A stretch of 64,000 bases of DNA. It comes from Escherichia phage St11Ph5. Numbering within the stretch: position 1 is the first letter of the stretch; every line of letters starts with the position of its first letter. The notes under the pieces are model-generated. The model had not been told where the DNA came from, did no database searches, and worked only from the letters and a program-made list of their open reading frames with translations. The stretch lies in sequence record NC_070873.1, one strand, 5' to 3'. This document shows, in pieces, positions 1 through 34,878 of the stretch. A program made the position numbers and the translations under genes.

Positions 1-83
1 GCTGGGGCTACACCCTTACACTCAACTAGCCCCCCCGGTATGTTGACGGTGTAGCCACTACCCTACCCCACCTTACACGTTAC

Positions 84-103
84 ACATGCTCCGCATGTTA
101 TGG
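84..103 (+). promoter_or_regulatory. Hairpin promoter of N4 vRNAP type (copy 1): stem ACATGC/GCATGT, loop TCC, then TATGG
   Basis: Perfect 6-bp inverted repeat with 3-nt loop; same architecture recurs 4 times upstream of early genes; the template-strand loop would be GGA. Confidence 0.55.
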
Positions 104-140
104 ACATGTCGTCCTATCGTCAACTATTGGAGCTATCATC

Positions 141-464
141 ATGACTACTCAAGCTACTGTACGTATGACCGCAGGAACTTTACTTGGTACTGTTAACTCA
201 GCTGCTACTACTGTTGCAGATACATTCAGTACAGCAACTAAAGCAGTAGGTATGCTTAATTCATATGTAAGTACTATGGCGGAGAAACAAGCCATTCGTA
301 CTAAATTAGAAATGCATACCTTTGTTAATAAACTGGCAGAGGAAACAGCTATGACTGAGACTCTGCGTAAGAAAAGTATCGAGGAATTCTGCAAGGATTC
401 AGAGAACGCTCGAATCTATAACGCAGAATATTCCAAAGTAATTGACATCCTGACTAAAGACTAA
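141..464 (+). CDS. hypothetical early protein (107 aa)
   Basis: ORF follows hairpin promoter, GGAG about 8 nt upstream of ATG, terminator immediately downstream. Confidence 0.6.
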   Translation: MTTQATVRMTAGTLLGTVNSAATTVADTFSTATKAVGMLNSYVSTMAEKQAIRTKLEMHTFVNKLAEETAMTETLRKKSIEEFCKDSENARIYNAEYSKVIDILTKD

Positions 465-471
465 ATCACCT

Positions 472-498
472 AGGAGACTCTTCGGAGTCTCCTGTTTT
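472..498 (+). terminator. intrinsic terminator (AGGAGACTC-TTCG-GAGTCTCCT then GTTTT)
   Basis: 9-bp GC-rich stem, TTCG tetraloop, T-run. Confidence 0.7.
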
Positions 499-554
499 GA
501 ACATTAGATAGATAGTCAAAAGTAGATAACTATCTACTTTAAGGATAGAAAATC

Positions 555-884
555 ATGACTAAATTCCGTTGTATCAAAGGCAATTGTGACATTCCTGTTG
601 GAACAATTATTGAAGGAGAACTTAAGGGTGAATATATAATTCTCACTAAGGATTCTACTATTCTAATGGGAGAAAAGCCTATCTTTGAGAAAGGAGAACC
701 AGTTAAGTTAACTGGTTACGTATGGCAATGGGAAGCCTGTGAAGATAAGGAAGAACTACTGGAACGTTATGAGAAAGCTGTTCGTGCCCATGAAATGCTT
801 GGTGCTCAAGACCCGGAAGATTGGTCTGGAATTGAGGAAGAGTATGAATCTGCTAAGGCAGAATTGCTTAAACGTTTGTCTTAA
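555..884 (+). CDS. hypothetical early protein (109 aa)
   Basis: ORF with AAGGA upstream of ATG. Confidence 0.6.
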   Translation: MTKFRCIKGNCDIPVGTIIEGELKGEYIILTKDSTILMGEKPIFEKGEPVKLTGYVWQWEACEDKEELLERYEKAVRAHEMLGAQDPEDWSGIEEEYESAKAELLKRLS

Positions 885-890
885 AAACCG

Positions 891-909
891 GAAGCTCCGC
901 TTCTATTGG
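891..909 (+). promoter_or_regulatory. Hairpin promoter of N4 vRNAP type (copy 2): GAAGC-TCC-GCTTC then TATTGG
   Basis: Same hairpin, TCC loop and downstream motif as copy 1. Confidence 0.55.
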
Positions 910-937
910 ATACATTTCAACCAATTAAGGAGCATCC

Positions 938-1153
938 ATGAACGTAAAATCTATCCGTATAATTGAGAATTGCTTTAGTGATAAACCAGTAGACCTCAGC
1001 AACTCAAGAAGGTCTACAGATAAAGAATATAAAGAGTTTCTATCCTTACTCGATGAATATCGTATGCAAGGGCATGTTGAATTACATGCCTTTCTGCATA
1101 ACTCAGGCTACTTCATGGACAAACTGGAAGCTAAAACAGGTTGTCCATTCTGA
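938..1153 (+). CDS. hypothetical early protein (71 aa)
   Basis: ORF with AAGGAG upstream of ATG. Confidence 0.6.
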   Translation: MNVKSIRIIENCFSDKPVDLSNSRRSTDKEYKEFLSLLDEYRMQGHVELHAFLHNSGYFMDKLEAKTGCPF

Positions 1154-1159
1154 AAACCA

Positions 1160-1179
1160 AGATGCTCCGCATCTTATGG
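1160..1179 (+). promoter_or_regulatory. Hairpin promoter of N4 vRNAP type (copy 3): AGATGC-TCC-GCATCT then TATGG
   Basis: Same architecture; preceded by AAAACC as in copy 2. Confidence 0.55.
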
Positions 1180-1278
1180 ATGATGTAAATGCATCCACTA
1201 ATCATTGAACTTTTATCCCTTTGTTTGGGTGTTCTCACCGACGAGTTCACCCGTAAATCACATAAATCTGGAGAGTAC

Positions 1279-1662
1279 AAAATGTCTATTCAAAAATTCA
1301 CTTTCGGTCAATCTAACGCTGCTGCTTCTACTGCTAAAGCTGATAAACCAAAAGCTCAGTTCTGGCTGAACATTGGTTATGTAGCCAATGAAGGCTCTGA
1401 TGATGAGAAATTCATCTCACTGCCTACTGGTATTCCACTGGATACTCAGGAACCGCTGCCTACTAATAGCAGCAATGCTGACTTCCGTGCTATGCGTTGT
1501 GCACAAAACGACTTGCTGGAACAGTTAATCCAATATGCTCAGAACCTGGAACCAGGTGAAGAAGGTATCATTAACCTGCAAGTTCAACTTCGTCGTGTGA
1601 AAGCAGAGGCTGCTGACATTCCAGCAGACGAGAATAAATATGCTCGTAAACTGACTTTCTAA
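1279..1662 (+). CDS. hypothetical early protein (127 aa; start moved downstream of the promoter)
   Basis: ATG at 1279 preceded by GGAGAG; the listed ORF start at 1189 would overlap the promoter hairpin. Confidence 0.55.
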
Positions 1663-1671
1663 TCAATTACA

Positions 1672-1700
1672 AGACTCCCTTCGGGGAGTCTTTTATTTTT
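1672..1700 (+). terminator. intrinsic terminator (AGACTCCC-TTCG-GGGAGTCT then T-run)
   Basis: 8-bp stem, TTCG loop, TTTTATTTTT. Confidence 0.75.
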
Positions 1701-1874
1701 AACTAGACGATAAGCTATTTCTACTTTTTGAGTATCTTTAGACGAAGGATACTGAAACAGTAACCAGATAGATATAGATTTATATTAGATGAAGGAGTAA
1801 CCATTATGCGTACATTATGTAACCGTTATAACTCACAGAAGATGATTAATATGTTACAACCTTAGGGCAGTAAG

Positions 1875-2102
1875 ATGTCACTGAATGCTCGTTGGCAGGT
1901 ATCCGTAAAAGATGAAAACGGTCACTGCTATGACCACTTCTTTGTAACTAAACCTACTCGTAAACAAATTCGTAAACTTCACAAAGTACGTAAGCATTAC
2001 TTACTTAGTAAATGCTACGAATGTGGCAAAAGGATAGAACTGGGTAAAGAATTTACCTTAGATGACTTAAACTATGCACACGCTGACTGCCTAAAAGGAT
2101 AA
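1875..2102 (+). CDS. small Cys-containing protein, possible zinc ribbon (75 aa)
   Basis: Paired Cys/His motifs (HCYDH ... CYECG ... HADC). Confidence 0.5.
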   Translation: MSLNARWQVSVKDENGHCYDHFFVTKPTRKQIRKLHKVRKHYLLSKCYECGKRIELGKEFTLDDLNYAHADCLKG

Positions 2103-2106
2103 GACT

Positions 2107-2325
2107 ATGTTGGACTTCATTGCGTTTGTAATACTCTGCTATGTGCTATATCGCCTACGTGGTTACATCCTCAATGGAGCCAAGTGGATAATTACTAAGC
2201 TGGTACTTATCTGTAAGTTACCAGTTGTATTAGTTAAGTGTTTGTTTGCTTCCATCATAGCTAAAGAGGTGCGTAAACAACTATGGGCTAAGGAAGCAGA
2301 AGACTATGTTAAGAGGAACCAGTGA
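2107..2325 (+). CDS. small hydrophobic (membrane) protein (72 aa)
   Basis: ORF with hydrophobic N-terminal segment. Confidence 0.45.
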   Translation: MLDFIAFVILCYVLYRLRGYILNGAKWIITKLVLICKLPVVLVKCLFASIIAKEVRKQLWAKEAEDYVKRNQ

Positions 2326-2471
2326 TGAATTATTCAGAATTGTGGCTTAAGTTTTATGAAGATTGGCTTAGTGCTGTATCTGGTAGACGCACCGAAGGTG
2401 ATATGAACCGGGCAAAGGAATTTGCAGATAATTGTATAAAGTCACTGAAGGAATCGGATGATGTTCACTGA
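2325..2471 (+). CDS. small ORF (48 aa), below the ORF-track cutoff
   Basis: ATG overlaps the upstream stop (TGATG); fills an otherwise empty plus-strand gap. Confidence 0.3.
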   Translation: MNYSELWLKFYEDWLSAVSGRRTEGDMNRAKEFADNCIKSLKESDDVH

Positions 2472-2634
2472 CATAGAATCTGCTATTGAAGAAGCTATGT
2501 ATCGTATGACCAGTGGTCCTCAAATAAGACACTATGGTCTGGTACAGAAAGGACACCTCATTGCTGTACGTATTGTACGTAACAGTAACCCTCAACGTTT
2601 TATGTGGACAACTAAATCATGCGTAAGTCATTAA
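2458..2634 (+). CDS. small ORF (58 aa), below the ORF-track cutoff
   Basis: ATG overlapping the previous ORF end; same strand and packing as neighbours. Confidence 0.3.
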   Translation: MMFTDIESAIEEAMYRMTSGPQIRHYGLVQKGHLIAVRIVRNSNPQRFMWTTKSCVSH

Positions 2635-2636
2635 TT

Positions 2637-2750
2637 ATGGGAACCAAAGAAGACGTACAGAAGATGAAAGAACGTCTAGCTGCTAAGAAACAAACGTCTG
2701 AACCTGTACGTCGTATCATAACCTTCAATCATCCAATCTTAGGAAACTAA
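2637..2750 (+). CDS. small ORF (37 aa)
   Basis: ATG 3 nt after previous stop; weak support. Confidence 0.2.
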   Translation: MGTKEDVQKMKERLAAKKQTSEPVRRIITFNHPILGN

Positions 2751-2752
2751 TC

Positions 2753-2965
2753 ATGTACTTTATAATCTTTATAGTATTGCTGTACCTTAACATTTGGCTA
2801 ACTAATGTAGCTGGTAATATTACTAAAACTTTTACTGCTAATAATGATGTCAGAGGTTTTGCAATATTTGGTTATGTTACTGCATTAACCAAGGGATTGA
2901 GCATAGGCTACGGCTTATGGTTCATATACTATTGTGTAGTCAATTTCCCATATTCATTTATATGA
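2753..2965 (+). CDS. small membrane protein (70 aa)
   Basis: Two hydrophobic segments in translation. Confidence 0.45.
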   Translation: MYFIIFIVLLYLNIWLTNVAGNITKTFTANNDVRGFAIFGYVTALTKGLSIGYGLWFIYYCVVNFPYSFI

Positions 2966-3025
2966 ACTGGCCTATATCAATAGCCATGTTTGTACTATTA
3001 ACATACGGTGCATTAGTAGAACTGG

Positions 3026-3056
3026 GAGTCCTCCATTAGGAGGGCTTCTATTTTTT
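3026..3056 (+). terminator. intrinsic terminator (stem around ATTA loop, then CTATTTTTT)
   Basis: 9-bp stem with G-U pairs plus T-run. Confidence 0.6.
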
Positions 3057-3103
3057 ATTCTTGAATAATTAGATATGTATTTAAATAGGAGAAATAACCT
3101 TGA

Positions 3104-3414
3104 ATGAAATTGTTTGTATACTTCCTCATTCAGCTAAGATAGCTGACCGGAATATACGTATCCATTTACCATTCCCATTAAGCAATCCATTCACTCGTAA
3201 TGAAAGAACCACAGTAGAAGATGTAGAGGTAGCTTATGAAGCTTACCTTCGTAATCGTCTTATTAGTGGTGATAAGCTAATTACAGCAGAGATGGAAAGG
3301 ATTGCATCCTTTGTAACGGATAGTACAGGTAAACCTGTTGGCTTAATTGGTACTGAATCTGACGTTAATGTTATTCGTAAAATATTACTGGAGGCACTCG
3401 GTGAACAATCTTAG
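3104..3414 (+). CDS. hypothetical protein (103 aa)
   Basis: ATG at 3104 preceded by AGGAG. Confidence 0.5.
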
Positions 3415-3646
3415 TGATGTCATCATAGATAAAACAATATTAGTGAATCCCAAAGGGTATGCCTGGTTCATGCTAAAGCATACCCGTAAGGTATATGTTA
3501 GAAAAGTATATATACGTAACTTTGGTAAGTTATCTTACAGAGAAGTACGTATTAATAATGAGATGTACTTTCTAGATGAGTCAGTGATTATCAAATCAAC
3601 CGAAGACAGAAAAGCCCCTTACTTTAACTATTACGGATTCAACTAA
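3401..3646 (+). CDS. hypothetical protein (81 aa), GTG start proposed
   Basis: GGAGG 10 nt upstream of in-frame GTG at 3401; the listed ATG at 3347 would overlap the upstream gene by 68 nt. Confidence 0.4.
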   Translation: MNNLSDVIIDKTILVNPKGYAWFMLKHTRKVYVRKVYIRNFGKLSYREVRINNEMYFLDESVIIKSTEDRKAPYFNYYGFN

Positions 3647-3647
3647 A

Positions 3648-3869
3648 ATGATGTACTCAACTGATTATGGTGTTTGCCCTGTATGTAACAAACGTAAAGG
3701 AGTCGCTAATCATAAGAAGTGTAGTCGTATCCTACAGAAACGACGGAACCAGGAAGAATGGGCTAAGGTATTGGAAAATCAGCATAAAGATGAGTTCAAG
3801 CAGATGGCTGTTAAGGCATCTACTCAGCTTATCCGTCGTACTAACTTCATAGAAGGTTATCAGAGATGA
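3648..3869 (+). CDS. small zinc-ribbon-like protein (73 aa)
   Basis: CPVC ... HKKC motif. Confidence 0.5.
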   Translation: MMYSTDYGVCPVCNKRKGVANHKKCSRILQKRRNQEEWAKVLENQHKDEFKQMAVKASTQLIRRTNFIEGYQR

Positions 3870-4222
3870 AACTAATCGTAGCTGGTGGAAGAGACTTCGT
3901 AGATACCAATCGTATGATTGAGGAACTACAGAAGTTAGTAAATTCAGGGAATATACCTGAATGTCCAGAATTAGTATGTGGCATGGTTCGTGGAGCAGAT
4001 ATATTAGCTTTCTATTTATGGAAATCTGCAAATATGCAGATACATGTATTCCGTGCTGAATGGGATGTCTATGGCAAATCTGCTGGATTCCGCAGAAATA
4101 AAGAGATGGGTGAATTCGCAGATGCTGCTGTATGTTTCTGGGATGGTAATTCCAAAGGAACCAAGCACATGATTGATATCATGCAGAGACTTAATAAACC
4201 CGTATACATCGTAAGGTACTAA
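3866..4222 (+). CDS. SLOG-type (DUF2493/YpsA-like) Rossmann-fold protein (118 aa)
   Basis: MKLIVAGGRDF N-terminal strand-Gly motif, GxVRGAD, conserved Phe-Trp-Asp-Gly-x-Ser-x-Gly-Thr near the C-terminus; by-eye resemblance only. Confidence 0.5.
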   Translation: MKLIVAGGRDFVDTNRMIEELQKLVNSGNIPECPELVCGMVRGADILAFYLWKSANMQIHVFRAEWDVYGKSAGFRRNKEMGEFADAAVCFWDGNSKGTKHMIDIMQRLNKPVYIVRY

Positions 4223-4480
4223 ATGATTATTACATATCCTACCTGTAGACCATTCAATTACATGGGGCAAACAATTGCAATACCTTTATGGGTTAAATAT
4301 GTTGCCCTGTTACCACGTACATATACTAGCAATAACTCTTCTCTTATGGGTTTTGCAAGAAAGCCTAAACTAACTGCCGAAGGTACTTGGGTATCTAAAG
4401 GAAGACAGGAAGAGATTGGTATTTGTAATTATGTGCCTGAAGATGACAAAACTTATTTAACAATGGAGAAGGTGAAGTGA
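4223..4480 (+). CDS. hypothetical protein (85 aa)
   Basis: ORF in operon-like string with start/stop overlap. Confidence 0.45.
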   Translation: MIITYPTCRPFNYMGQTIAIPLWVKYVALLPRTYTSNNSSLMGFARKPKLTAEGTWVSKGRQEEIGICNYVPEDDKTYLTMEKVK

Positions 4481-4791
4481 AAACTATTCTAGTAGTACAT
4501 GATTCTACATTTACTGATGTAGATAAGATGATGCGTAATATTGATTATGTATCTCAGACAAGCCAAGCATTCAATGAAGAGTTTACTCTGTACTGTAATG
4601 CCGAATCTCCACTGGTTCCTATTCTTAAGGAGTCAGGTCTACCCTTCTCTACAGAAAACTTTCCGGAAGAACCAGACTATGTAATCTCATTCATCTATGA
4701 CTTACATGATGGTTCTGAAACTAGTGAATTAGCTATGAACCAGTGGCGTAGTAAACGTCCTGTGTTCGCATTTCAGGTACTTAAACCATGA
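4477..4791 (+). CDS. hypothetical protein (104 aa), GTG start overlapping upstream stop
   Basis: GTGA overlap with previous stop; GGAGAAGG upstream. Confidence 0.45.
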   Translation: MKTILVVHDSTFTDVDKMMRNIDYVSQTSQAFNEEFTLYCNAESPLVPILKESGLPFSTENFPEEPDYVISFIYDLHDGSETSELAMNQWRSKRPVFAFQVLKP

Positions 4792-5168
4792 AGATTATGT
4801 CATTAGGCGATGACACCAATGCTTTACTTGGTGTATCTGCATGTCCAATTATTATTGTTAATAAACATCACGGTAAATCCGGTGAGTATATTGGACGTGG
4901 TTCACCATTAGGTAATCCATTCGTTATTGGTAAAGACGGTTCGAGAGAACAGGTTATAGCCAAGTATCGAGTATGGCTTAATGAGCAAATCATGAGAAAT
5001 AATCCAGTTGTATTGGATGAACTTAATCGTCTTGGTAATAAAGCCATTGACGAGAAAGGCTTAGCCTTACAGTGCTTCTGTTATCCGAAACCATGTCATG
5101 GTGAAGTTATTAAAGAGAAACTAGTGAAGGCTATGTATAACTATTTTGTGGAGAATCCTAATGGATAA
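4788..5168 (+). CDS. DUF4326-like protein (126 aa)
   Basis: YIGRGSPLGNPF and CYPKPCHG motifs resemble the DUF4326 signature; by-eye. Confidence 0.45.
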   Translation: MKIMSLGDDTNALLGVSACPIIIVNKHHGKSGEYIGRGSPLGNPFVIGKDGSREQVIAKYRVWLNEQIMRNNPVVLDELNRLGNKAIDEKGLALQCFCYPKPCHGEVIKEKLVKAMYNYFVENPNG

Positions 5169-5346
5169 ACAATGCAAATGTGGTAAAGGCCATGTATCTC
5201 AATGGGATGGTAAATGTGGTCATTGCCGAACCAAGAAGGAACAACGTGACCTTGAGTATGCTCTTACTTATTTAGAAGTAACCCGTCACTACAACAGTAT
5301 GACCACACACGATGCTTATACTTACAACAGAGAGGCATGTAAATGA
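5146..5346 (+). CDS. small Cys-rich protein (66 aa)
   Basis: CKCGKGH ... CGHC motif. Confidence 0.45.
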   Translation: MWRILMDKQCKCGKGHVSQWDGKCGHCRTKKEQRDLEYALTYLEVTRHYNSMTTHDAYTYNREACK

Positions 5347-5693
5347 AAGAAATCTTAGTATTCACTACTAATACACTTGGGCAACATACCAATGCTGCTG
5401 CCAAATTAGCTTATAAGAAGCATGGTGCTCGTTGGGGTATGGCCTATGGTCATTATGGTAATAGCTTTGCCATTCCAATAAAGGATGGTAATGGTAACCG
5501 AATTAAAGAAGGTGCTATCTATGGCTTCATTGAAGGCTTTATTGCCTATGCATCATCTAATCCACAGTGGGACTTTAAAGTCGTGAGTAATGACTATCTG
5601 GACCCATACCAATTCATTAATGTAACGGGCAATGTACTGTTACCAGAAGCATGGCGTAAACACTTAGGTGATGCTTACAACTACTGGAGCTAA
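5343..5693 (+). CDS. hypothetical protein (116 aa)
   Basis: ORF with ATGA overlap to the previous gene; Gly-rich motifs; no family recognised with confidence. Confidence 0.5.
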   Translation: MKEILVFTTNTLGQHTNAAAKLAYKKHGARWGMAYGHYGNSFAIPIKDGNGNRIKEGAIYGFIEGFIAYASSNPQWDFKVVSNDYLDPYQFINVTGNVLLPEAWRKHLGDAYNYWS

Positions 5694-5695
5694 TA

Positions 5696-5956
5696 ATGAC
5701 GTATGAAGAATTATGGTCTGCTCAAGTCAGAGCCAGAGCACTCACACGACATGACATCTATTGTGCATTACAGAACGAATTAAAGAGTCGTACTAAGCTG
5801 GGTCACATATCTGGCTTAGTTAAGATACCTATGACTAGCCTAGTCTGGCCTTACCAGAAGAAAAGTAATGAGTTTAATGGTAATGGTCTGCATGTACGTA
5901 TCGACTACATTGGTAATGAAAATAATATTCGTATTACCTTTTGGACTAAACGCTAG
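5696..5956 (+). CDS. hypothetical protein (86 aa)
   Basis: ORF 2 nt after previous stop. Confidence 0.5.
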   Translation: MTYEELWSAQVRARALTRHDIYCALQNELKSRTKLGHISGLVKIPMTSLVWPYQKKSNEFNGNGLHVRIDYIGNENNIRITFWTKR

Positions 5957-5961
5957 GTAAT

Positions 5962-5981
5962 AGCTGCTCCGCAGCTTTTGG
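5962..5981 (+). promoter_or_regulatory. Hairpin promoter of N4 vRNAP type (copy 4): AGCTGC-TCC-GCAGCT then TTTGG, upstream of the RNAPII genes
   Basis: Same hairpin/loop/downstream motif as copies 1-3. Confidence 0.55.
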
Positions 5982-6009
5982 TTATTAATCATATTTAGGA
6001 GAATAAGCG

Positions 6010-6828
6010 ATGTACTCATCTATTGAACATCAGAAGCGACTTGAAATCCTTTTCAACAAAAATCAATTACTCCCTCGCATGAGGAAGGAATTCGAGGACT
6101 CCGAAGAAATTGACTTTAAAGCTTTTGCTGCCTATTTAGAAATTGATTATAAGCTGCTCATTGATGCAATGGTGCAGATTGCCCTACATAAACGTGCTGA
6201 CATCCAAACTATGATTGGCTCTCTCATGAGTCACTCAGATGATGCTCAGTACATCGCTGACTGTCTGTATAAGATGGCAGAGAATGACTGCTTCAACTAT
6301 GACCCTACCATCGACAAGTTTGGTGTTATTTATGAGATTAGTGAAGATGTACAGATGGAACTGGAAGCATTCCAGTATCCATTACCTATCGTAAGTGCTC
6401 CTAAACCTGTTAAGTGTAACCGTGATACTGGTTACTACGAGAGCAGAGGTAGCATCATCCTCAAGAAGAACCATCATGAGATGGATGTCTGTCTTGACCA
6501 CATCAACCGCATGAATAACCAACGTCTCTGTATTAACTGGGACGTTGCTAACTATGTAAAAGACTCTCGTCCTAACATGGATAAACCTAAAGAAGGTGAA
6601 ACCCGTCAGGACTATGAGAAACGTGTTAAAGCCTTTGAGAAGTACAGTCGTACAGCTAAGGAAGTAATGGAGTTAGTGACCAAAGAAGGTAATAACTTCT
6701 CTTTGGCTCACAAATACGACAAGCGTGGGCGTACCTATGCCTGTGGCTACCACATCAACTATCAGGGAACCAGTTACAACAAAGCTGTACTGGAGTTCGC
6801 TGATAAGGAGTTAGTAAATGAAGACTAA
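6010..6828 (+). CDS. phage RNA polymerase II, N-terminal-type subunit (T7-like RNAP, split; 272 aa)
   Basis: YDKRGRTYACGYHINYQG resembles the T7 RNAP DWRGRVY...NPQG region; followed by the catalytic subunit. Confidence 0.7.
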   Translation: MYSSIEHQKRLEILFNKNQLLPRMRKEFEDSEEIDFKAFAAYLEIDYKLLIDAMVQIALHKRADIQTMIGSLMSHSDDAQYIADCLYKMAENDCFNYDPTIDKFGVIYEISEDVQMELEAFQYPLPIVSAPKPVKCNRDTGYYESRGSIILKKNHHEMDVCLDHINRMNNQRLCINWDVANYVKDSRPNMDKPKEGETRQDYEKRVKAFEKYSRTAKEVMELVTKEGNNFSLAHKYDKRGRTYACGYHINYQGTSYNKAVLEFADKELVNED

Positions 6829-7036
6829 CATTGGCTCCTATGAACTATGGGTTAATGAAGAGTGTGTCTACTCAGGTACATATGTGAAGTGCTTATACTT
6901 TGAGAAGCTTTACAAGCTTCAAAACCCTAAGAGTAAAACCATTATTTATAAACTATCTGCCGACGTAGTAACTGGCTAATCCATCCAATAAGCAGGCTCT
7001 CCATAGTGGGGAGCCAAGAAGCAAAAGGAACATAAA

Positions 7037-8254
7037 ATGCAACTGTTAACCGCTCGTGAATACCTGAAAGTAGATATCGCTAATAACTATGGCTTAGATA
7101 AGAAGACATGGGATGAGCGTATTGCCTGGTTTGATGAGAACGAAGCTAACCTGCTTAATCTGGTAGATGAAGCTGAAGATTCTGCTCTGTTCTTTGCTGG
7201 TGTAAACGCATGGAAAGACATGAAAGCAGGTAAGCCTATTGGTTATGCCGTAGCTCTTGATGCTACATCATCAGGCTTGCAGTTACTGGCTTGCCTGACT
7301 GGTGACCGCTCTGCTGCTGAATTGTGTAACGTAGTTAACTACATGGGTGAGAATGGTAAGCCATTACGTCGTGATGCTTATACAGTTATCTATCACAAGA
7401 TGCTGGACATCCTTGGTGAAGCATCACGTATTAAACGTAGTGATACTAAGCAGGCAGTTATGACTGCATTCTACGGCTCAGAAGCCAAGCCTAAAGAAGT
7501 ATTCGGTGAAGGTATTCGTCTCAAGACTTTTGAGAATGTAATGGAAACTGTTGCTAGTGGTCCTTGGGCACTTAACAAGTTCTTACTGCAATGTGGTAAT
7601 CCAGATGCTAACCGTTATATATGGGTACTCCCTGACAACTTCCATGCTGTCATTAAAGTCATGATTCCTGAAGTACAGACTGTTAACTTCTTAGGTAAGC
7701 CATTCGACATCACTCGTATGGTTCAGGGTACTGAAGAGAAGACACGTATGCTCTCTGCTAACATCACTCACTCTATTGATGGGATGGTGGTACGTGAGAT
7801 GCTGCGTCGTTGTAACTTCGACCGTGACTTAGTGGAAGCTGTGCGAGAACTCTGCGATGAAGGTCCATCAGAATATGGGGAGATTGCAGGTAATCTGGAG
7901 AAGGTACAGGAATTGTGGAGCCACTATGAGAAATCCGGCTTCTTATCCTTATCCATTCTGGATTATCTTGACCCATGTACTATTGCTTATGTAGACCGTC
8001 AGGTAGTAGCAGATATGATTGACACCATGCCTAAGAAGCCATTCCCTGTAATGACTGTACATGACTGCTTCCGTTGCCATCCTAACTACGGTAATGACCT
8101 ACGTCGTCAATACAATCAGATTCTGTCTGACATTGCTAAGAGTGACTTACTGGGCTTCATCCTGTCTCAGGTACTGGGACAAGAGTTCTCTGCTGGTAAG
8201 CTGGATGACAGCCTCTGGCAGGACATTCTTGAAACAGACTATGCATTAAGTTAA
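7037..8254 (+). CDS. phage RNA polymerase II, catalytic subunit (T7-like single-subunit RNAP palm; 405 aa)
   Basis: Motif A DATSSGLQ, motif B RSDTKQAVMTAFYGS, motif C TVHDCF. Confidence 0.85.
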   Translation: MQLLTAREYLKVDIANNYGLDKKTWDERIAWFDENEANLLNLVDEAEDSALFFAGVNAWKDMKAGKPIGYAVALDATSSGLQLLACLTGDRSAAELCNVVNYMGENGKPLRRDAYTVIYHKMLDILGEASRIKRSDTKQAVMTAFYGSEAKPKEVFGEGIRLKTFENVMETVASGPWALNKFLLQCGNPDANRYIWVLPDNFHAVIKVMIPEVQTVNFLGKPFDITRMVQGTEEKTRMLSANITHSIDGMVVREMLRRCNFDRDLVEAVRELCDEGPSEYGEIAGNLEKVQELWSHYEKSGFLSLSILDYLDPCTIAYVDRQVVADMIDTMPKKPFPVMTVHDCFRCHPNYGNDLRRQYNQILSDIAKSDLLGFILSQVLGQEFSAGKLDDSLWQDILETDYALS

Positions 8255-8270
8255 TAAACTAGCCTCATTC

Positions 8271-8306
8271 CTTCGGGAGTGGGGCTTATTTTTTCTTTGG
8301 AGGTAG
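8271..8306 (+). terminator. intrinsic terminator after the RNAPII genes
   Basis: 11-bp stem with TTCG loop followed by TTATTTTTTCTTT. Confidence 0.7.
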
Positions 8307-8311
8307 CAACT

Positions 8312-8494
8312 ATGCTAATCACTTTTGAAGTAATCTTTCAGCTAATACTGATAGTTTTATCTATACTGGTTCTGTCTACAATAGTTCATTCCCACAAGTC
8401 TAAGTTTGCCTACTGCTACTATGGGGCATACTCACTAGGTTGCTTTGTAATGGCAGGATGGATAGCTTTTACTATCTACTGTGTAAACAACTAA
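8312..8494 (+). CDS. small membrane protein (60 aa)
   Basis: ATG at 8312 after GGAGG; the listed start at 8279 lies inside the terminator hairpin. Confidence 0.4.
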   Translation: MLITFEVIFQLILIVLSILVLSTIVHSHKSKFAYCYYGAYSLGCFVMAGWIAFTIYCVNN

Positions 8495-8511
8495 CCCTCT
8501 TAACGGAGGGT
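8485..8511 (+). terminator. intrinsic terminator (AACCCTC ... GAGGGTT then TATTTTTT)
   Basis: 7-bp stem plus T-run. Confidence 0.6.
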
Positions 8512-11935: not shown

Positions 11936-13111
11936 ATGAACCAATTTCCTCAGCACACACTTAGTGATGAACAACTCATGCGTGAGTATGACCGTATTCA
12001 GGCGCAGGCGTTTCTCGGACGCAGTGCTGCGTTCTTTGGTTCATTGCTGTGTAGTCTTAAGTTCTCATGGAAACGTGAGGATTGCCCCACTGCATGTACT
12101 GATGGGATAGAACTCCATTTCAACCCAGACTTCTTTATCTGGATGTGTCCAGATGCAAGAGAAACAGTATTAATGCATGAACTATGGCATGTAGCATATC
12201 TACATGACATCCGTCGTGGAAGCCGTGACCCGGAAATCTGGAACCAGGCTTGTGACCACTTCATTAACCTTCAGTTAGAAGAAGATGGTTACAAGTTCAC
12301 TGGCATTGACAAAGGCATTTGCAAAGACCCTCAATATAAAGGATGGGTCGAAGAAGACATCTACGATGACCTGATGAAGAACCCTCAGAAAAGGCAGAAG
12401 CCCTCGGGGGGTGCTGGAGCAGGTCTTGCTGGCGACATGAAATCCCCCACTTCGGGGCAGTCCCAGGGTGCTGTTGTCAACAACGTAGTACGTGCAATGC
12501 AAAGCCAGAAAATGGCTGGTGGACAGATGCCCGGTAAGGGTGCTGGTCGTATGGAAGAGGTTATTACCCAATTCCTTAAACCAGTGGTTCCCTGGCAGGA
12601 AGTTCTGATGAACTTCTTTACCGACATTGATGACACACACTATACGTGGGCCAGACCTAATCGTCGTTACACTGATATCTATCTACCTTCCCTGGAAGAT
12701 GATGAAGGACGTTTACGTCACTTAGCCTACTTTGAGGATGTGTCTGGTTCTATTAGTAGTGCTGACTCTCTGCGTTTTAACTCAGAGGTTGCCTACGTTA
12801 AGAGCCAATTCAATCCTAAGAAGATGTCCTTAATTACCTTCGACGATATTATCCAGGAAGAGATAGACATCACTGAAGAAGATACTTTTGAAGAGATTAA
12901 GATTACAGGTCGTGGTGGTACAAGCCTTGTGCCTGTACGAGATTGGATTATTAAGAATAAACCAACCGCTGCAATCATATTCTCCGATATGTATGTTCGC
13001 CCAATGGAAGAATTGCCATTTGATATCCCTATCATCTGGTGTGTTCTGAATAATCCTAATGCTACCGTACCTTTTGGGGAGGTAGTTCATATCCCTAAAG
13101 GAATGAAATAA
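11936..13111 (+). CDS. vWA-domain protein with N-terminal zincin-like HExxH domain (391 aa)
   Basis: HELWH motif, DVSGSISS MIDAS-like motif; directly downstream of the MoxR ATPase. Confidence 0.7.
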   Translation: MNQFPQHTLSDEQLMREYDRIQAQAFLGRSAAFFGSLLCSLKFSWKREDCPTACTDGIELHFNPDFFIWMCPDARETVLMHELWHVAYLHDIRRGSRDPEIWNQACDHFINLQLEEDGYKFTGIDKGICKDPQYKGWVEEDIYDDLMKNPQKRQKPSGGAGAGLAGDMKSPTSGQSQGAVVNNVVRAMQSQKMAGGQMPGKGAGRMEEVITQFLKPVVPWQEVLMNFFTDIDDTHYTWARPNRRYTDIYLPSLEDDEGRLRHLAYFEDVSGSISSADSLRFNSEVAYVKSQFNPKKMSLITFDDIIQEEIDITEEDTFEEIKITGRGGTSLVPVRDWIIKNKPTAAIIFSDMYVRPMEELPFDIPIIWCVLNNPNATVPFGEVVHIPKGMK

Positions 13112-13617
13112 TGGTTGTTAATGGTAATTCTCTATATCGTTCTTCTCAGTTGCTAGATGTCCCTGACCGTAAGATATCCGAGCATGGTGTAAGCTACGGA
13201 TTGGGTGAAGCTGGTTATGATATTCGTATCAAACAGGATATTACCTTCTATCGCTTACTTGGGTTGATTCCAATGGTGAAGGTCGTTGATGGAAATCAAG
13301 TATCACGACATTTTGGTAAGTTCACATTGGCTTCAGCAATTGAGAAGTTCAACATGTCTCCGTCCTGTGTAGCTATCGTTCACGATAAGTCTACATGGGC
13401 AAGACGTGCATTATCCGTATTTAATACAGTAATCGAACCAGGGTGGAAAGGTTGGCTTACTTTAGAGCTTGCCTACCATGGTCGTAAGAAATTGCATATC
13501 CCGGCTGGTTCTGGGATAGCTCAAGTATTATTTCATCTGGTTCAGGAACCTGCTAATTACAATGGCAAGTACATGAACCAGGAAAACAAACCAGTAGCTG
13601 CAAGAAGCAGTAAATAA
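13111..13617 (+). CDS. dCTP deaminase/dUTPase-fold protein (168 aa)
   Basis: GVSYGLGEAGYDIRI and EPGWKGWLTLEL motifs resemble dCTP deaminase. Confidence 0.55.
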   Translation: MVVNGNSLYRSSQLLDVPDRKISEHGVSYGLGEAGYDIRIKQDITFYRLLGLIPMVKVVDGNQVSRHFGKFTLASAIEKFNMSPSCVAIVHDKSTWARRALSVFNTVIEPGWKGWLTLELAYHGRKKLHIPAGSGIAQVLFHLVQEPANYNGKYMNQENKPVAARSSK

Positions 13618-14656: not shown

Positions 14657-15099
14657 TGCGTATTCCATTCCTAAGAAAAAGAGAACGAAATCCTGTTCTT
14701 TATAATAAAGGCATAGAGGATGAGTATGAACTCAACCGTAAAGCTCGTTCCTACACAACAAAATTATTCATGGGGACTAAAAACCCTGATAGATTATTGG
14801 ACTTTGTTTTTGAACAAGTCTTTATCATATACAGCTTAGCTATGTCTGCTGGTTCACAAGAAGTGAGTGATAAGGCAAGAGATGCTCTCTGTATGCTCCG
14901 TAAAGAGTATGAAGCCCTCATGTATGAAGACTTATACTCCTTTAAAAAAGAAACCGCTGTAGCGTGTTCTGTGGCTCTTACTGAAGGTGTAGCAGTATTA
15001 CAGGAACTACCTCGTAGTGAGTTTAAGCTGGTATACGTTCAGGTTAAGAAAATCACAGAGACGAGAAGTGGTATCACCAACTATCTAAGGTCATTCTAA
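14656..15099 (+). CDS. hypothetical protein (147 aa)
   Basis: ORF, stop overlaps the ThyX-like start. Confidence 0.5.
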   Translation: MRIPFLRKRERNPVLYNKGIEDEYELNRKARSYTTKLFMGTKNPDRLLDFVFEQVFIIYSLAMSAGSQEVSDKARDALCMLRKEYEALMYEDLYSFKKETAVACSVALTEGVAVLQELPRSEFKLVYVQVKKITETRSGITNYLRSF

Positions 15100-16043
15100 T
15101 GATTAAGGCAACTGTCATTGCAGATTCCGTTCATCCAGAAACAGGAACTCGTATCACAACCTTTGAATTGGTTTACCCCCGATTCATTCACAGTGAGTTT
15201 ATGACTCACCGTGTATTTAACCGTAACGCTTCAAGCAGTCGTGCTATCCCAACTGCTAAGTTAATCGAACAGGTTCGTAATGAACCAGTGATGCCAAGTC
15301 ACTGGGGTAAGAACCAGAAAGGAATGCAGGCAAGTGAAGAACTCACTCCTATGGAGATTAAGGATGCTGAGTTCATTTGGGAAAATGCTGCCTCTGTTGC
15401 TGCTGTGTATGCTGAACAACTTCGTCGCGGACAAGTACATAAGCAGATTGTTAATCGTATTCTGGAACCATTCACGCATATCCGTGTAGTGGTAACTTCA
15501 ACTAGCTGGGCTAACTTCTATGGATTGCGTGACCACAAAGATGCACAACCAGAGATTTGTAAACTGGCTCAAGCAATGCGTAAGGCACATGAGGAAAGTA
15601 CGCCAAGGGCATTACCATATGGGCAATGGCATCTACCTTATATTGCTCATATTGACCGTGTTGGGGCTTACAATTTCTGCAAACGTAATCGAATTACACG
15701 CGATGAACCAAGTGATGCAGAAGTGCATGGACTACTTCTCAAAGTAAGTGCTGCACGTTGTGCTCGTGCCTCATATAACAATTTTGAGGGACGTCCCTCT
15801 ACTATCGAAGAAGACCTTGGCTTATTCGCTAAGTTAGTGGAAAACCAACCTATTCATGCTTCCCCAACAGAACATCAAGCTACGCCTATGAACCTTAGTG
15901 AGAAGTATGTGAATAACATGAACCCAGTTACCTGGGAACAAGGTGTTACATCCATGGATAAAGAAGGTAATCTGTACTCAGGTAACCTGCTCCACTTTAT
16001 CCAATTCCGTAAGTTAATTCCTGGTGAGACTATTACTGAATGA
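15099..16043 (+). CDS. FAD-dependent thymidylate synthase ThyX-like (314 aa)
   Basis: HRVFNRNASSSR resembles the ThyX RHR...S..R motif; WANFYGLRDHKDAQPEI resembles the ThyX W.HF..LR...AQ.EI region. Confidence 0.55.
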   Translation: MIKATVIADSVHPETGTRITTFELVYPRFIHSEFMTHRVFNRNASSSRAIPTAKLIEQVRNEPVMPSHWGKNQKGMQASEELTPMEIKDAEFIWENAASVAAVYAEQLRRGQVHKQIVNRILEPFTHIRVVVTSTSWANFYGLRDHKDAQPEICKLAQAMRKAHEESTPRALPYGQWHLPYIAHIDRVGAYNFCKRNRITRDEPSDAEVHGLLLKVSAARCARASYNNFEGRPSTIEEDLGLFAKLVENQPIHASPTEHQATPMNLSEKYVNNMNPVTWEQGVTSMDKEGNLYSGNLLHFIQFRKLIPGETITE

Positions 16044-33952: not shown

Positions 33953-34352
33953 TATCGTGAAGGGTTCTGTTAGAATCCTTTGAGATAGGAACTCCTATCA
34001 TAACCTTTCTTAACTTAATCTTTGCCGTATGGCACTGACGCTAGGGTTTATGCCCATCCGTCAGGTAGACTATTTTAAGAATGGGTTATCACAGCAAATG
34101 TAAAGCAACATTCGGGTTAATCAATGGCCTCTCCCTATAGGGGCCATTTCTGAATCTTAGGCTATATCCCAAAGGTTAGCATCTTTGGGATAAGGCTTCA
34201 GATCCCTTATCAACTAACGCTCATGCTGAGCACAACATTAACCAATAATGTCGGATAGTTCATTACGCTATTCATCCAGCATCGAGATGTTAGGTCTTAC
34301 ATGTAACATAGGGTATAAAGGGAGGACTCGTCCCCTCCCTCCTATTATAATG

Positions 34353-34422
34353 GTCGGGGTAGCACGTAGGCATGTGCAGAAGGTCGCTACTTCTCTCGCT
34401 GGTTCGAATCCAGCCCCTGACC
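34353..34422 (+). tRNA. candidate tRNA (70 nt; anticodon loop reads gt-CGC-ta), no encoded CCA
   Basis: Hand fold: acceptor 34353-59/34415-21 (7 bp, one G-U), D-stem GCAC/GTGC, anticodon stem AGAAG/CTTCT, T-stem GCTGG/CCAGC with TTCGAAT loop; short variable region is atypical. Confidence 0.4.
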
Positions 34423-34878
34423 TACTGACATCCTATCAATGAGTACATTAGGCTAACGTGCGGAGGTTTACACTGTAGCCGGTGTAGGTGGAGAAGACGG
34501 CAGGGTAGCTACCTGTGCTTAGTGTACTCTTTGATAGTTTTCGTAAGCGATTATGCGGTTTTTTAGAAATGAACCAATAACATAAATGCAAACGATGATG
34601 TTGTTCTGATGGCGGCGTAATAGCCTGTAAGTCAGCAAGGTCTTCCTATTCCTTGTAAATAAATTCGGCGCAGTGGCCCGCTGTAATTAATAATGGGCAC
34701 ACAACAGGTAAGAGCATTGGGTAATGTCAGCCTTGGTTCGAAGTCGAAAGACATGCGGTAATACCCAGCCAAAGTTCCAGTGCTCTTTCCGTTGTGGAAA
34801 TGCAAGCACAACAAGTCCAGACGATATCTGAGTGACTATAAAAACAGATGGAGCCAGGTGGAATCCCTGGCAATCAAT

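Follow-up and report, generated by a model that had tools for sequence, protein, structure and literature searches.

The gene string and its coding evidence

We analysed a 64,000-nt stretch of Escherichia phage St11Ph5 (NC_070873.1; this whole stretch is called the window) with regard to a string of small genes on the + strand, which code for a stand-alone SLOG protein, two proteins of the DUF4326 family, a protein with a predicted macrodomain fold and several further small proteins. The neighbourhood of the string is the left end of a G7C-like (Gamaleyavirus, N4-like) coliphage genome. Megablast with positions 3000–7000 matched 71 phage records, every one of them an N4-like enterobacterial phage, and the closest relative was Escherichia phage vB_EcoP_ShWW44 (Schitoviridae, Enquatrovirinae, Gamaleyavirus) with 93% DNA identity at a query cover of 100%. 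A first-pass annotation made from the sequence alone had described eight tightly coupled small genes at 3648–5956. All eight were found at the coordinates at which they are also annotated in ShWW44, with junctions of −8 to +2 nt (Table 1), and a Shine-Dalgarno-like motif precedes most starts of the string. The eight genes are real, but the string does not begin with them. Gene 3401–3646 overlaps 3100–3414 by 14 nt and is separated from 3648 by a single base, and hence the coupled unit comprises ten genes, 3100–5956, and not eight. It is bounded by a terminator-like hairpin upstream and by the fourth phage hairpin promoter downstream; the next gene (6010–6828) encodes a homologue of RNAP1 subunit B/N4 gp15. 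The region 3100–5956 is an accessory gene block between the early promoters and the genes of the phage RNA polymerase II (RNAPII).

For all ten genes, pairwise ratios of nonsynonymous to synonymous substitution (dN/dS; Nei-Gojobori) were determined against seven relatives (24-32N, ShWW44, Mimir124, N4, E20, EC1-UPM and SP5M). The ratios ranged from 0.02 to 0.29, with a single value of 0.41. Because of the tight coupling and the purifying selection, all ten open reading frames (ORFs) are genuine protein-coding genes and not chance ORFs. No support was found for short minus-strand ORFs inside the genes of the string.

Table 1. Position and characteristics of the genes of the string and of the transcription signals around it. 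Gaps are given in nt relative to the preceding gene; percentages are amino-acid identities to the N4 orthologue.
Feature	Position	Strand	Gap	Characteristics
First hairpin promoter motif	86–104	+		
Second hairpin promoter motif	892–910	+		
Third N4-type hairpin promoter	1162–1180	+		ATGC-TCC-GCAT; predicted +1 G near 1178; nearest upstream early promoter
Terminator-like hairpin	1671–1692	+		
Terminator-like hairpin	3023–3050	+		12-bp stem with 6 G-C pairs, then T6; directly upstream of the string
104-aa protein, N4 gp9 orthologue (74%)	3100–3414	+		Degenerate DUF4326 paralogue; PHROG 464, E=8.5e-17
81-aa protein	3401–3646	+		PHROG 10124; absent from N4, 24-32N and Mimir124
73-aa protein	3648–3869	+	+1	CxxC-x8-HxxC candidate zinc knuckle, then basic helical tail; PHROG 6887; absent from N4
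118-aa stand-alone YAcAr/DUF2493 SLOG domain	3866–4222	+	−4	GGRDF, GMxRGAD, W..GK.AG.RRN and WDGxSKGT intact; absent from N4
85-aa protein	4223–4480	+	0	PHROG 1972; only in enterobacterial N4-like phages; 57–96% identity among relatives
104-aa protein, N4 gp11 orthologue (82%)	4477–4791	+	−4	Small Rossmann-like beta-alpha-beta sandwich predicted
126-aa DUF4326 protein, N4 gp12 orthologue (88%)	4788–5168	+	−4	Pfam PF14216
61-aa protein, N4 gp13 orthologue (67%)	5161–5346	+	−8	CxC-x11-CxxC candidate zinc ribbon; PHROG 13804
116-aa protein, N4 gp14/A1S_2505 family (46%)	5343–5693	+	−4	Predicted macrodomain fold; NCBIfam NF049995
86-aa protein	5696–5956	+	+2	PHROG 14487; absent from N4; dN/dS 0.03–0.17
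Fourth hairpin promoter	5962–5982 (motif 5964–5982)	+		AGCTGC-TCC-GCAGCT, then TTTGG; matches the N4 hairpin upstream of gp15

Families and folds of the encoded proteins

In the 118-aa protein a SLOG/DUF2493-like signature (MKLIVAGGRDF ... FWDGNSKGT) had been recognized by eye, and in the 126-aa protein a DUF4326-like one (SPLGNPF ... CYPKPCHG). Both assignments were borne out. The SLOG protein scored 27.5 bits (E=2.8e-6; gathering score 28.2) against Pfam PF10686 (YAcAr, the former DUF2493) and matched PHROG 289 at 3e-28, and PF10686 is on record for all 120 homologues listed (62–92% identity). In an alignment of 45 sequences from diverse members, every invariant and near-invariant residue of the family was present (G7, R9, G39, A41, G43, D45, W66, G70, A73, G74, R77, N78, W92, D93, G94, S96 and G98). 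By hhalign, the family aligned with a clear YAcAr member, Seurat gp80, with a probability of 98.5% (E=3e-15, 110 columns, 27% identity). An exhaustive phmmer search with the SLOG protein reached 13,018 representative clusters, and tblastn found 1,029 phage records. Of the 150 best-ranking representatives in this search, 32 were multidomain proteins, all of which contained YAcAr; the partners fused to these near relatives were DUF4326 (8/32), NADAR (4/32), Macro (3/32), DUF488 (3/32) and a few others. The fusions to DUF4326, NADAR and Macro independently reproduce the architecture network described in PMC9503650. DprA was rejected as a label for the SLOG protein, which has 118 aa and a single domain and whose best PDB profile match, the DprA structure 3uqz, gave E=0.043 over the N-terminal half. 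Judged by these comparisons, the DprA and 'GTP-binding domain' labels on relatives reflect superfamily-level similarity only.

The 126-aa protein matched PF14216 with 80.8 bits (E=1.2e-22; cutoff 25). All ten invariant residues of the DUF4326 family are present, including R37, N43, P44, R53, C96, C98, P100, C103 and H104, and both the GRG..GNPF and the CxCxPxxCH motif are kept. DUF4326 was found in 1,291 phage records, the nrdA.1 position of T4-like phages included, and PMC9503650 regards the family as phosphatases with a rhodanese-phosphatase fold. A profile search with DUF4326 against PDB gave no match, and sequence searches did not yield a significant solved structure for either this protein or the SLOG protein. 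ShWW44 labels its DUF4326 protein 'NrdA-like ribonucleotide reductase' (PQ900156, XOL08100). This label was not supported by our searches and appears to be transitive from the T4 ORF name nrdA.1.

The gp9-like protein at the start of the string is related to the 126-aa protein (BLASTP E=3e-7). In the alignment it keeps PLSNPF only; GRG is gone, as are all Cys and His residues of the signature, and N4 gp9 shows the same decay. With a dN/dS of 0.02–0.11 the gene is under strong purifying selection. By sequence, it is a degenerate member of the DUF4326 family.

The 116-aa protein, which the first-pass annotation could not assign to a family, belongs to the N4 gp14/A1S_2505 family, as shown by a match to NF049995 ('A1S_2505 family phage non-structural protein') with 83.5 bits (E=1.1e-23; cutoff 45). 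This family occurs in 457 phage records, mainly of N4-like phages, a few of which already carry the label 'macro domain' or 'ADP-ribosylglycohydrolase' (PMC6950046). From an alignment of 35 sequences, AlphaFold2 produced a model with a predicted local distance difference test (pLDDT) score of 89.8. In Foldseek comparisons of the model with PDB the macrodomains of TARG1 (probability 0.98, template modelling (TM) score 0.60) and DarG (0.97, TM 0.62) were retrieved, with weak E-values. The modelled fold is that of a macrodomain, closest to DarG and TARG1, which would make the protein the third member of the published ADP-ribose network in the string.

The consensus of the gp14 family reads FVFGSNxxGxHGAGAA ... 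GNSFAIPTK ... VTRIGCGLAG. These motifs resemble the GxG loop of the ADP-ribose cleft described in PMC9503650, and the RIGCGLAG-type motif resembles MPRIGAGIGKG of T4 Tk.4 (AdfM). N4 gp14 retains both HGAGAA and RIGCGLAG, whereas the window protein has lost both: RIGCGLAG is removed by an 8-residue deletion, which is also present in each of the six Gamaleyavirus relatives compared, and HTNAAA stands where the family has HGAGAA. In the metagenomic relative P0008, HGAGAA (loop 1) is kept while RIGCGLAG (loop 2) is already deleted, suggesting that the loss of loop 2 preceded the decay of loop 1. Within the genus the dN/dS of the gene is 0.04–0.15, and the protein is thus still functional. Most probably, to judge from its motifs, the Gamaleyavirus protein is a pseudoenzyme or another non-catalytic derivative. 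In Rhodobacter phage RcMcLean a gp14-family gene (3001–3390), located 2.5 kb downstream of a DprA-like SLOG gene, is annotated 'ADP-ribosyltransferase'; this label probably misnames a fold of the ADP-ribose hydrolase type. 'Antirepressor' and 'ADP-ribosyltransferase' labels in related records were likewise not supported by searches and look like superfamily-level or transitive annotations.

Two further proteins had been called zinc-ribbon-like. Each of them has four invariant Cys/His ligands arranged in two pairs, namely C10, C13, H22 and C25 in the 73-aa protein (unchanged across the 7 sequences aligned) and C5, C7, C19 and C22 in the 61-aa protein (invariant in relatives, N4 gp13 included). 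A zinc-ribbon family profile was not matched, however, and neither protein had a match below E=0.07 in Pfam or NCBIfam. The gp11-like protein belongs to a narrow family (23 clusters, nearly all at least 64% identical) and was modelled confidently by AlphaFold2 (pLDDT 94.4). It was rejected as a second SLOG protein: hhalign against the SLOG alignment gave a probability of 4%, and Foldseek against PDB retrieved generic Rossmann-like folds with TM scores of 0.54 or less. According to the model it is an orphan Rossmannoid without a specific structural relative. The 81-, 85- and 86-aa proteins matched function-unknown PHROGs only, and tblastn with the 85-aa protein found 67 records of enterobacterial N4-like phages.

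Mosaic composition, promoters and terminators

Five genes of the string have orthologues in N4 (gp9, gp11, gp12, gp13 and gp14), which follow one another in identical order and are placed alike with respect to the RNAPII genes; N4 also has a hairpin promoter and a terminator-like hairpin at places equivalent to those of the window. The five genes for the 81-aa, 73-aa, SLOG, 85-aa and 86-aa proteins are absent from N4. Even close relatives differ in gene content: E20 and EC1-UPM are devoid of the DUF4326 and 61-aa genes, and 24-32N and Mimir124 of the 81-aa gene. Amino-acid identities across the string span 57–100% among close relatives; within Gamaleyavirus they are 68–93% for the SLOG protein, 57–96% for the 85-aa protein and 85–100% for the gp11-like protein. 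Presence and absence of genes together with these uneven identities indicate that the region is accessory and prone to recombination and not a single fixed module. The string is therefore a mosaic of conserved N4 backbone genes and variable inserts, and the suggestion that the genes together form one module was not upheld. In 24-32N (3032–4016) an extra gene for a 74-aa 'endonuclease' precedes the DUF4326 gene and one for a 127-aa hypothetical protein follows it, a case of indel turnover at this locus.

GCTCCGC with inverted-repeat flanks occurs in four copies in the window, all of them on the + strand, intergenic and within the first 6 kb. Each forms a stem of 4–7 bp with a TCC loop, followed downstream by T(T/A)TGG. 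The early promoters of N4 have been described as a GC-rich heptamer at −11 with flanking inverted repeats (PMC4496689), and all four motifs match this definition of an N4-type early promoter of the virion RNA polymerase (vRNAP). N4 carries the same hairpin structure at 90, 557 and 4546, that is, three hairpins, as also described for this phage, compared with four in the window. The motifs at 892 and 1162 are 270 nt apart, flank a 71-aa ORF (938–1153) and precede a gp2-like gene. As had been stated in the first-pass annotation, the string lies between the third and the fourth motif. The fourth, by its sequence and position, is the promoter of the RNAP1/RNAPII subunit genes from 6010 onwards and marks the end of the string.

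Two terminator-like hairpins on the + strand intervene between the third promoter and the string, and transcripts from the promoter at 1162 therefore need to read through both in order to reach 3100. Phage SP5M has an annotated terminator at the place equivalent to 3023–3050, and the N4 equivalent is located after gp7. In the N4-like phage LUZ7, more than 60% of the termination sites permit substantial transcript extension (PMC9163698). Between the hairpin and the TTG start at 3100 there is an AT-rich spacer of 49 nt (3051–3099; TTTTTTATTCTTGAATAATTAGATATGTATTTAAATAGGAG...), where a middle promoter of RNAPII might be located. In the region 1–8500 sigma-70-like sites are depleted (7 observed versus 25.6 ± 5.0 expected from shuffles) and terminator-like hairpins are enriched (14 versus 4.8), which fits a region that is not read by the host RNA polymerase. 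No Rfam family was matched anywhere in the 64-kb window.

Outside the locus we noted a single tRNA-Ala gene (anticodon CGC; 34352–34423) where genes are sparse, between the vRNAP gene and the middle genes, and a 391-aa ORF in the middle region (11936–13111; HNH endonuclease in the closest relative) between the ATPase and dCTP deaminase genes, which is probably a mobile insertion.

A possible role of the block in counter-defence

Four proteins of the string are members of ADP-ribose/nucleotide superfamilies: an intact SLOG protein, an intact and a decayed DUF4326 protein and, according to the model, a loop-less macrodomain. In viruses, SLOG, Macro, NADAR and DUF4326 proteins have been placed in a network that processes ADP-ribose derivatives, predicted to be deployed early and to act in counter-defence (Iyer, Burroughs, Anantharaman and Aravind, 2022; PMC9503650). 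The link to ADP-ribose-centred conflict that the first-pass annotation had drawn for the SLOG and DUF4326 families is found in this work, which places all four families in one network. We assign a probability of roughly 0.55 to the idea that the ten-gene block is early or pre-middle and its recognisable members act on NAD/ADP-ribose-derived molecules in counter-defence and that two of them have been reduced to non-catalytic forms. Substrates, target systems and timing are proposed as follows. Soon after infection, the intact SLOG protein would cleave N-glycosidic bonds and the intact DUF4326 protein ribose-linked phosphates. Their substrates might be NAD+/ADP-ribose-derived immune signals, toxic metabolites or ADP-ribose adducts produced by host systems, with TIR/Thoeris-type, DarT-type or AVAST-linked systems as candidates. 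The degenerate macrodomain and the degenerate DUF4326 protein may have been kept in a non-catalytic capacity, as decoys, binders or partners, and the small, putatively zinc-binding proteins could be host-takeover factors in their own right.

Phage proteins of the same superfamilies provide precedents. In Seuratvirus DruSM1, deletion of ORF83 (Smf/DprA-like) lowered plating on AVAST type III (10.1101/2024.04.14.589459). In a later preprint the ORF83 protein was modelled as LOG-like, with AMP bound by R89, N90, T112 and D114, and giant-virus homologues are fused to DUF4326 (10.1101/2025.06.06.658234). Seurat gp80 matches YAcAr PF10686 with E=4.9e-18 and has R89, N90, T112 and D114 at exactly the positions reported for ORF83; from the genus and this residue numbering we infer that the two are orthologous. 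On DarTG2 hosts T4 needs its DarG-like macrodomain Tk.4 (AdfM), which counters this system (10.1101/2025.11.20.689424), and AdfN, a NADAR protein of T4, counters DarTG1 (PMC11825919). As these precedents demonstrate, a stand-alone phage protein from such a superfamily can act against host defence; they contain nothing direct on St11Ph5. RcMcLean, an unrelated phage of the Casjensviridae, also has a gp14-like and a DprA-like SLOG gene together in one string.

Host takeover or anti-defence rather than housekeeping had been proposed for the string. Searches with Pfam, PHROG and NCBIfam profiles assigned none of the ten proteins to a housekeeping family, and the profile searches for the SLOG and DUF4326 proteins and the AlphaFold/Foldseek comparison for the macrodomain fold gave the assignments described above. 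This part of the proposal stood, but the anti-defence role is one that we infer, and several observations weigh against it. Neither the genes of the string nor their N4 orthologues gp9 and gp11–14 have an experimentally known function. Judged by their motifs, two of the four proteins from ADP-ribose families seem to have lost catalytic activity. One is the gp9-like DUF4326 protein; in the other, the macrodomain-like protein, both canonical ADP-ribose-binding loops are missing, and binding of ADP-ribose should not be assumed. The macrodomain assignment itself is based on the predicted fold and motifs. Proof at the sequence level was sought and failed: Pfam Macro PF01661 was not matched by the window protein, by N4 gp14 or by any of 35 family members, phmmer and profile searches of PDB with the gp14 family did not reach a macrodomain, and hhalign of the family against T4 AdfM was negative. 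The likeness of the SLOG protein to Seurat gp80/ORF83 is distant (27% identity), with H101 in the window in place of the fourth predicted ligand residue D114, and it was a deletion screen, published as a preprint, that gave the ORF83 phenotype (10.1101/2024.04.14.589459). A PADLOC search with the ten proteins gave no match, and hence no mimicry of a defence component was visible. The string had been expected to be among the first proteins made; the strong terminator-like hairpin at 3023–3050 stands between it and the nearest early promoter, and on the evidence of these signals early timing is uncertain and the claim weaker than it was put. Finally, SLOG and DUF4326 genes adjoin nucleotide-metabolism genes elsewhere.

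Such neighbourhoods favour a metabolic role, in which the SLOG protein as a LOG-like N-glycosidase/phosphoribohydrolase and the DUF4326 protein as a sugar-phosphate phosphatase would recycle or alter the nucleotide or NAD pools used in phage replication instead of acting on immune molecules. In Proteus phage Privateer a SLOG homologue is found among genes for PnuC-like/nicotinate ribosyltransferase, deoxyribosyltransferase-superfamily and anaerobic ribonucleotide reductase (NrdD) proteins. In T4-like phages the nrdA.1 position is taken by DUF4326, and LOG-clade SLOG enzymes hydrolyse AMP, as cited in 10.1101/2025.06.06.658234. In the window, however, the genes for dCTP deaminase (13111–13617) and thymidylate synthase (15099–16043) are located in the middle region, distant from the string, which itself varies among close relatives to the point that E20 and EC1-UPM do without DUF4326. 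Moreover, the SLOG protein belongs to the YAcAr and not to the LOG family, and its recurrent fusion partners Macro and NADAR are ADP-ribose hydrolases. We regard a metabolic role as quite improbable. Processing of RNA ends is very improbable in our view. The block lies directly upstream of the RNAPII genes, the order gp12-gp13-gp14-gp15 is common to N4 and the window, and PMC9503650 names ADP-ribose-1''-phosphate (ADPr-1''P) from RNA repair and NAD-cap-derived molecules as possible substrates of Macro, NADAR, SLOG and DUF4326 proteins. The proteins could thus act on NAD caps or on ADPr-1''P or 2'-phosphate by-products of RNA repair or of transcription by the phage single-subunit RNA polymerases. 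Against this, genes for RNA ligase, KptA/Tpt1, 2H or Nudix proteins were not seen in the string or in ten middle-region ORFs scanned, N4-type polymerases are not known to make NAD-capped RNA, and DUF4326 is dispensable in some relatives.

Alternatively, the enzyme folds may be mere scaffolds, and the loop-less macrodomain, the degenerate DUF4326 protein, the gp11-like protein and the two putative zinc-binding proteins may be stoichiometric inhibitors that bind host replication, transcription or division proteins. This would account for two members that are strongly constrained by purifying selection (dN/dS 0.02–0.15) although their catalytic or ligand motifs are gone, and P0008 suggests a stepwise loss of ligand binding. 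The gene just upstream of gp9 in N4, gp8, encodes an inhibitor of the host clamp loader. A target is known for none of the proteins, however, and the SLOG and gp12-like DUF4326 proteins keep all invariant residues, which favours catalysis or ligand binding. We consider host takeover by such inhibitors unlikely. In a variant of the counter-defence reading, the gp14-like pseudoenzyme, having parted first with its phosphate-binding loop and then with its GxG loop, would for example inhibit a host ADP-ribosyltransferase or TIR enzyme, serve as a decoy for it or be a partner of the newly acquired SLOG protein, and would combine with the active/inactive DUF4326 pair into an undescribed multi-protein device against NAD/ADP-ribose-based immunity; this seems quite improbable to us. 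A Pfam scan of ten unassigned ORFs from the middle region gave no phage-encoded ADP-ribosyltransferase for which the string could compensate, nor is one annotated in ShWW44, in a search that was not exhaustive.

N4-like phages are a classic model and common candidates for therapy, yet no function has been assigned to the genes that separate their early promoters from the RNAPII genes. If NAD/ADP-ribose immunity is neutralised by the block, this would provide a function for N4 gp9 and gp11–14 and a first biochemical handle on two widespread phage families, DUF4326 and YAcAr SLOG, and it would help to predict host range on strains with DarTG, Thoeris or AVAST. The loop-less macrodomain offers a natural contrast between the apparently active N4 gp14 and the seemingly inactive form of the window. 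The families, the labels and the prediction of counter-defence are already public, and the same genes are present in dozens of sequenced relatives; our finding chiefly confirms a published computational prediction in one further genome. Modestly new are the loop-less Gamaleyavirus macrodomain, the degenerate DUF4326 paralogue, which N4 also has (gp9), and the terminator, which makes earliest expression harder to claim.

Compared with known systems, the 116-aa protein of the window has no significant sequence-profile match to DarG, TARG1 or AdfM and, with both motifs missing, is unlikely to be a hydrolase; N4 gp14, too, differs from T4 Tk.4 (AdfM) in that it does not match Pfam Macro. The SLOG protein and Seurat gp80 are both stand-alone members of the YAcAr family of about 120–130 aa, and R77, N78 and T99 of the window protein align with R89, N90 and T112 of Seurat gp80/ORF83, whereas Seurat gp80 has an insert of 18 residues. 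In contrast to the network of Iyer and co-workers, whose functional claims are computational predictions, the domains in the window are separate small proteins, a NADAR or Nudix gene does not occur and two of four members are degenerate. The string and the network agree in their domain families, in the pattern of fusions and in the early host-manipulation setting of their genes.

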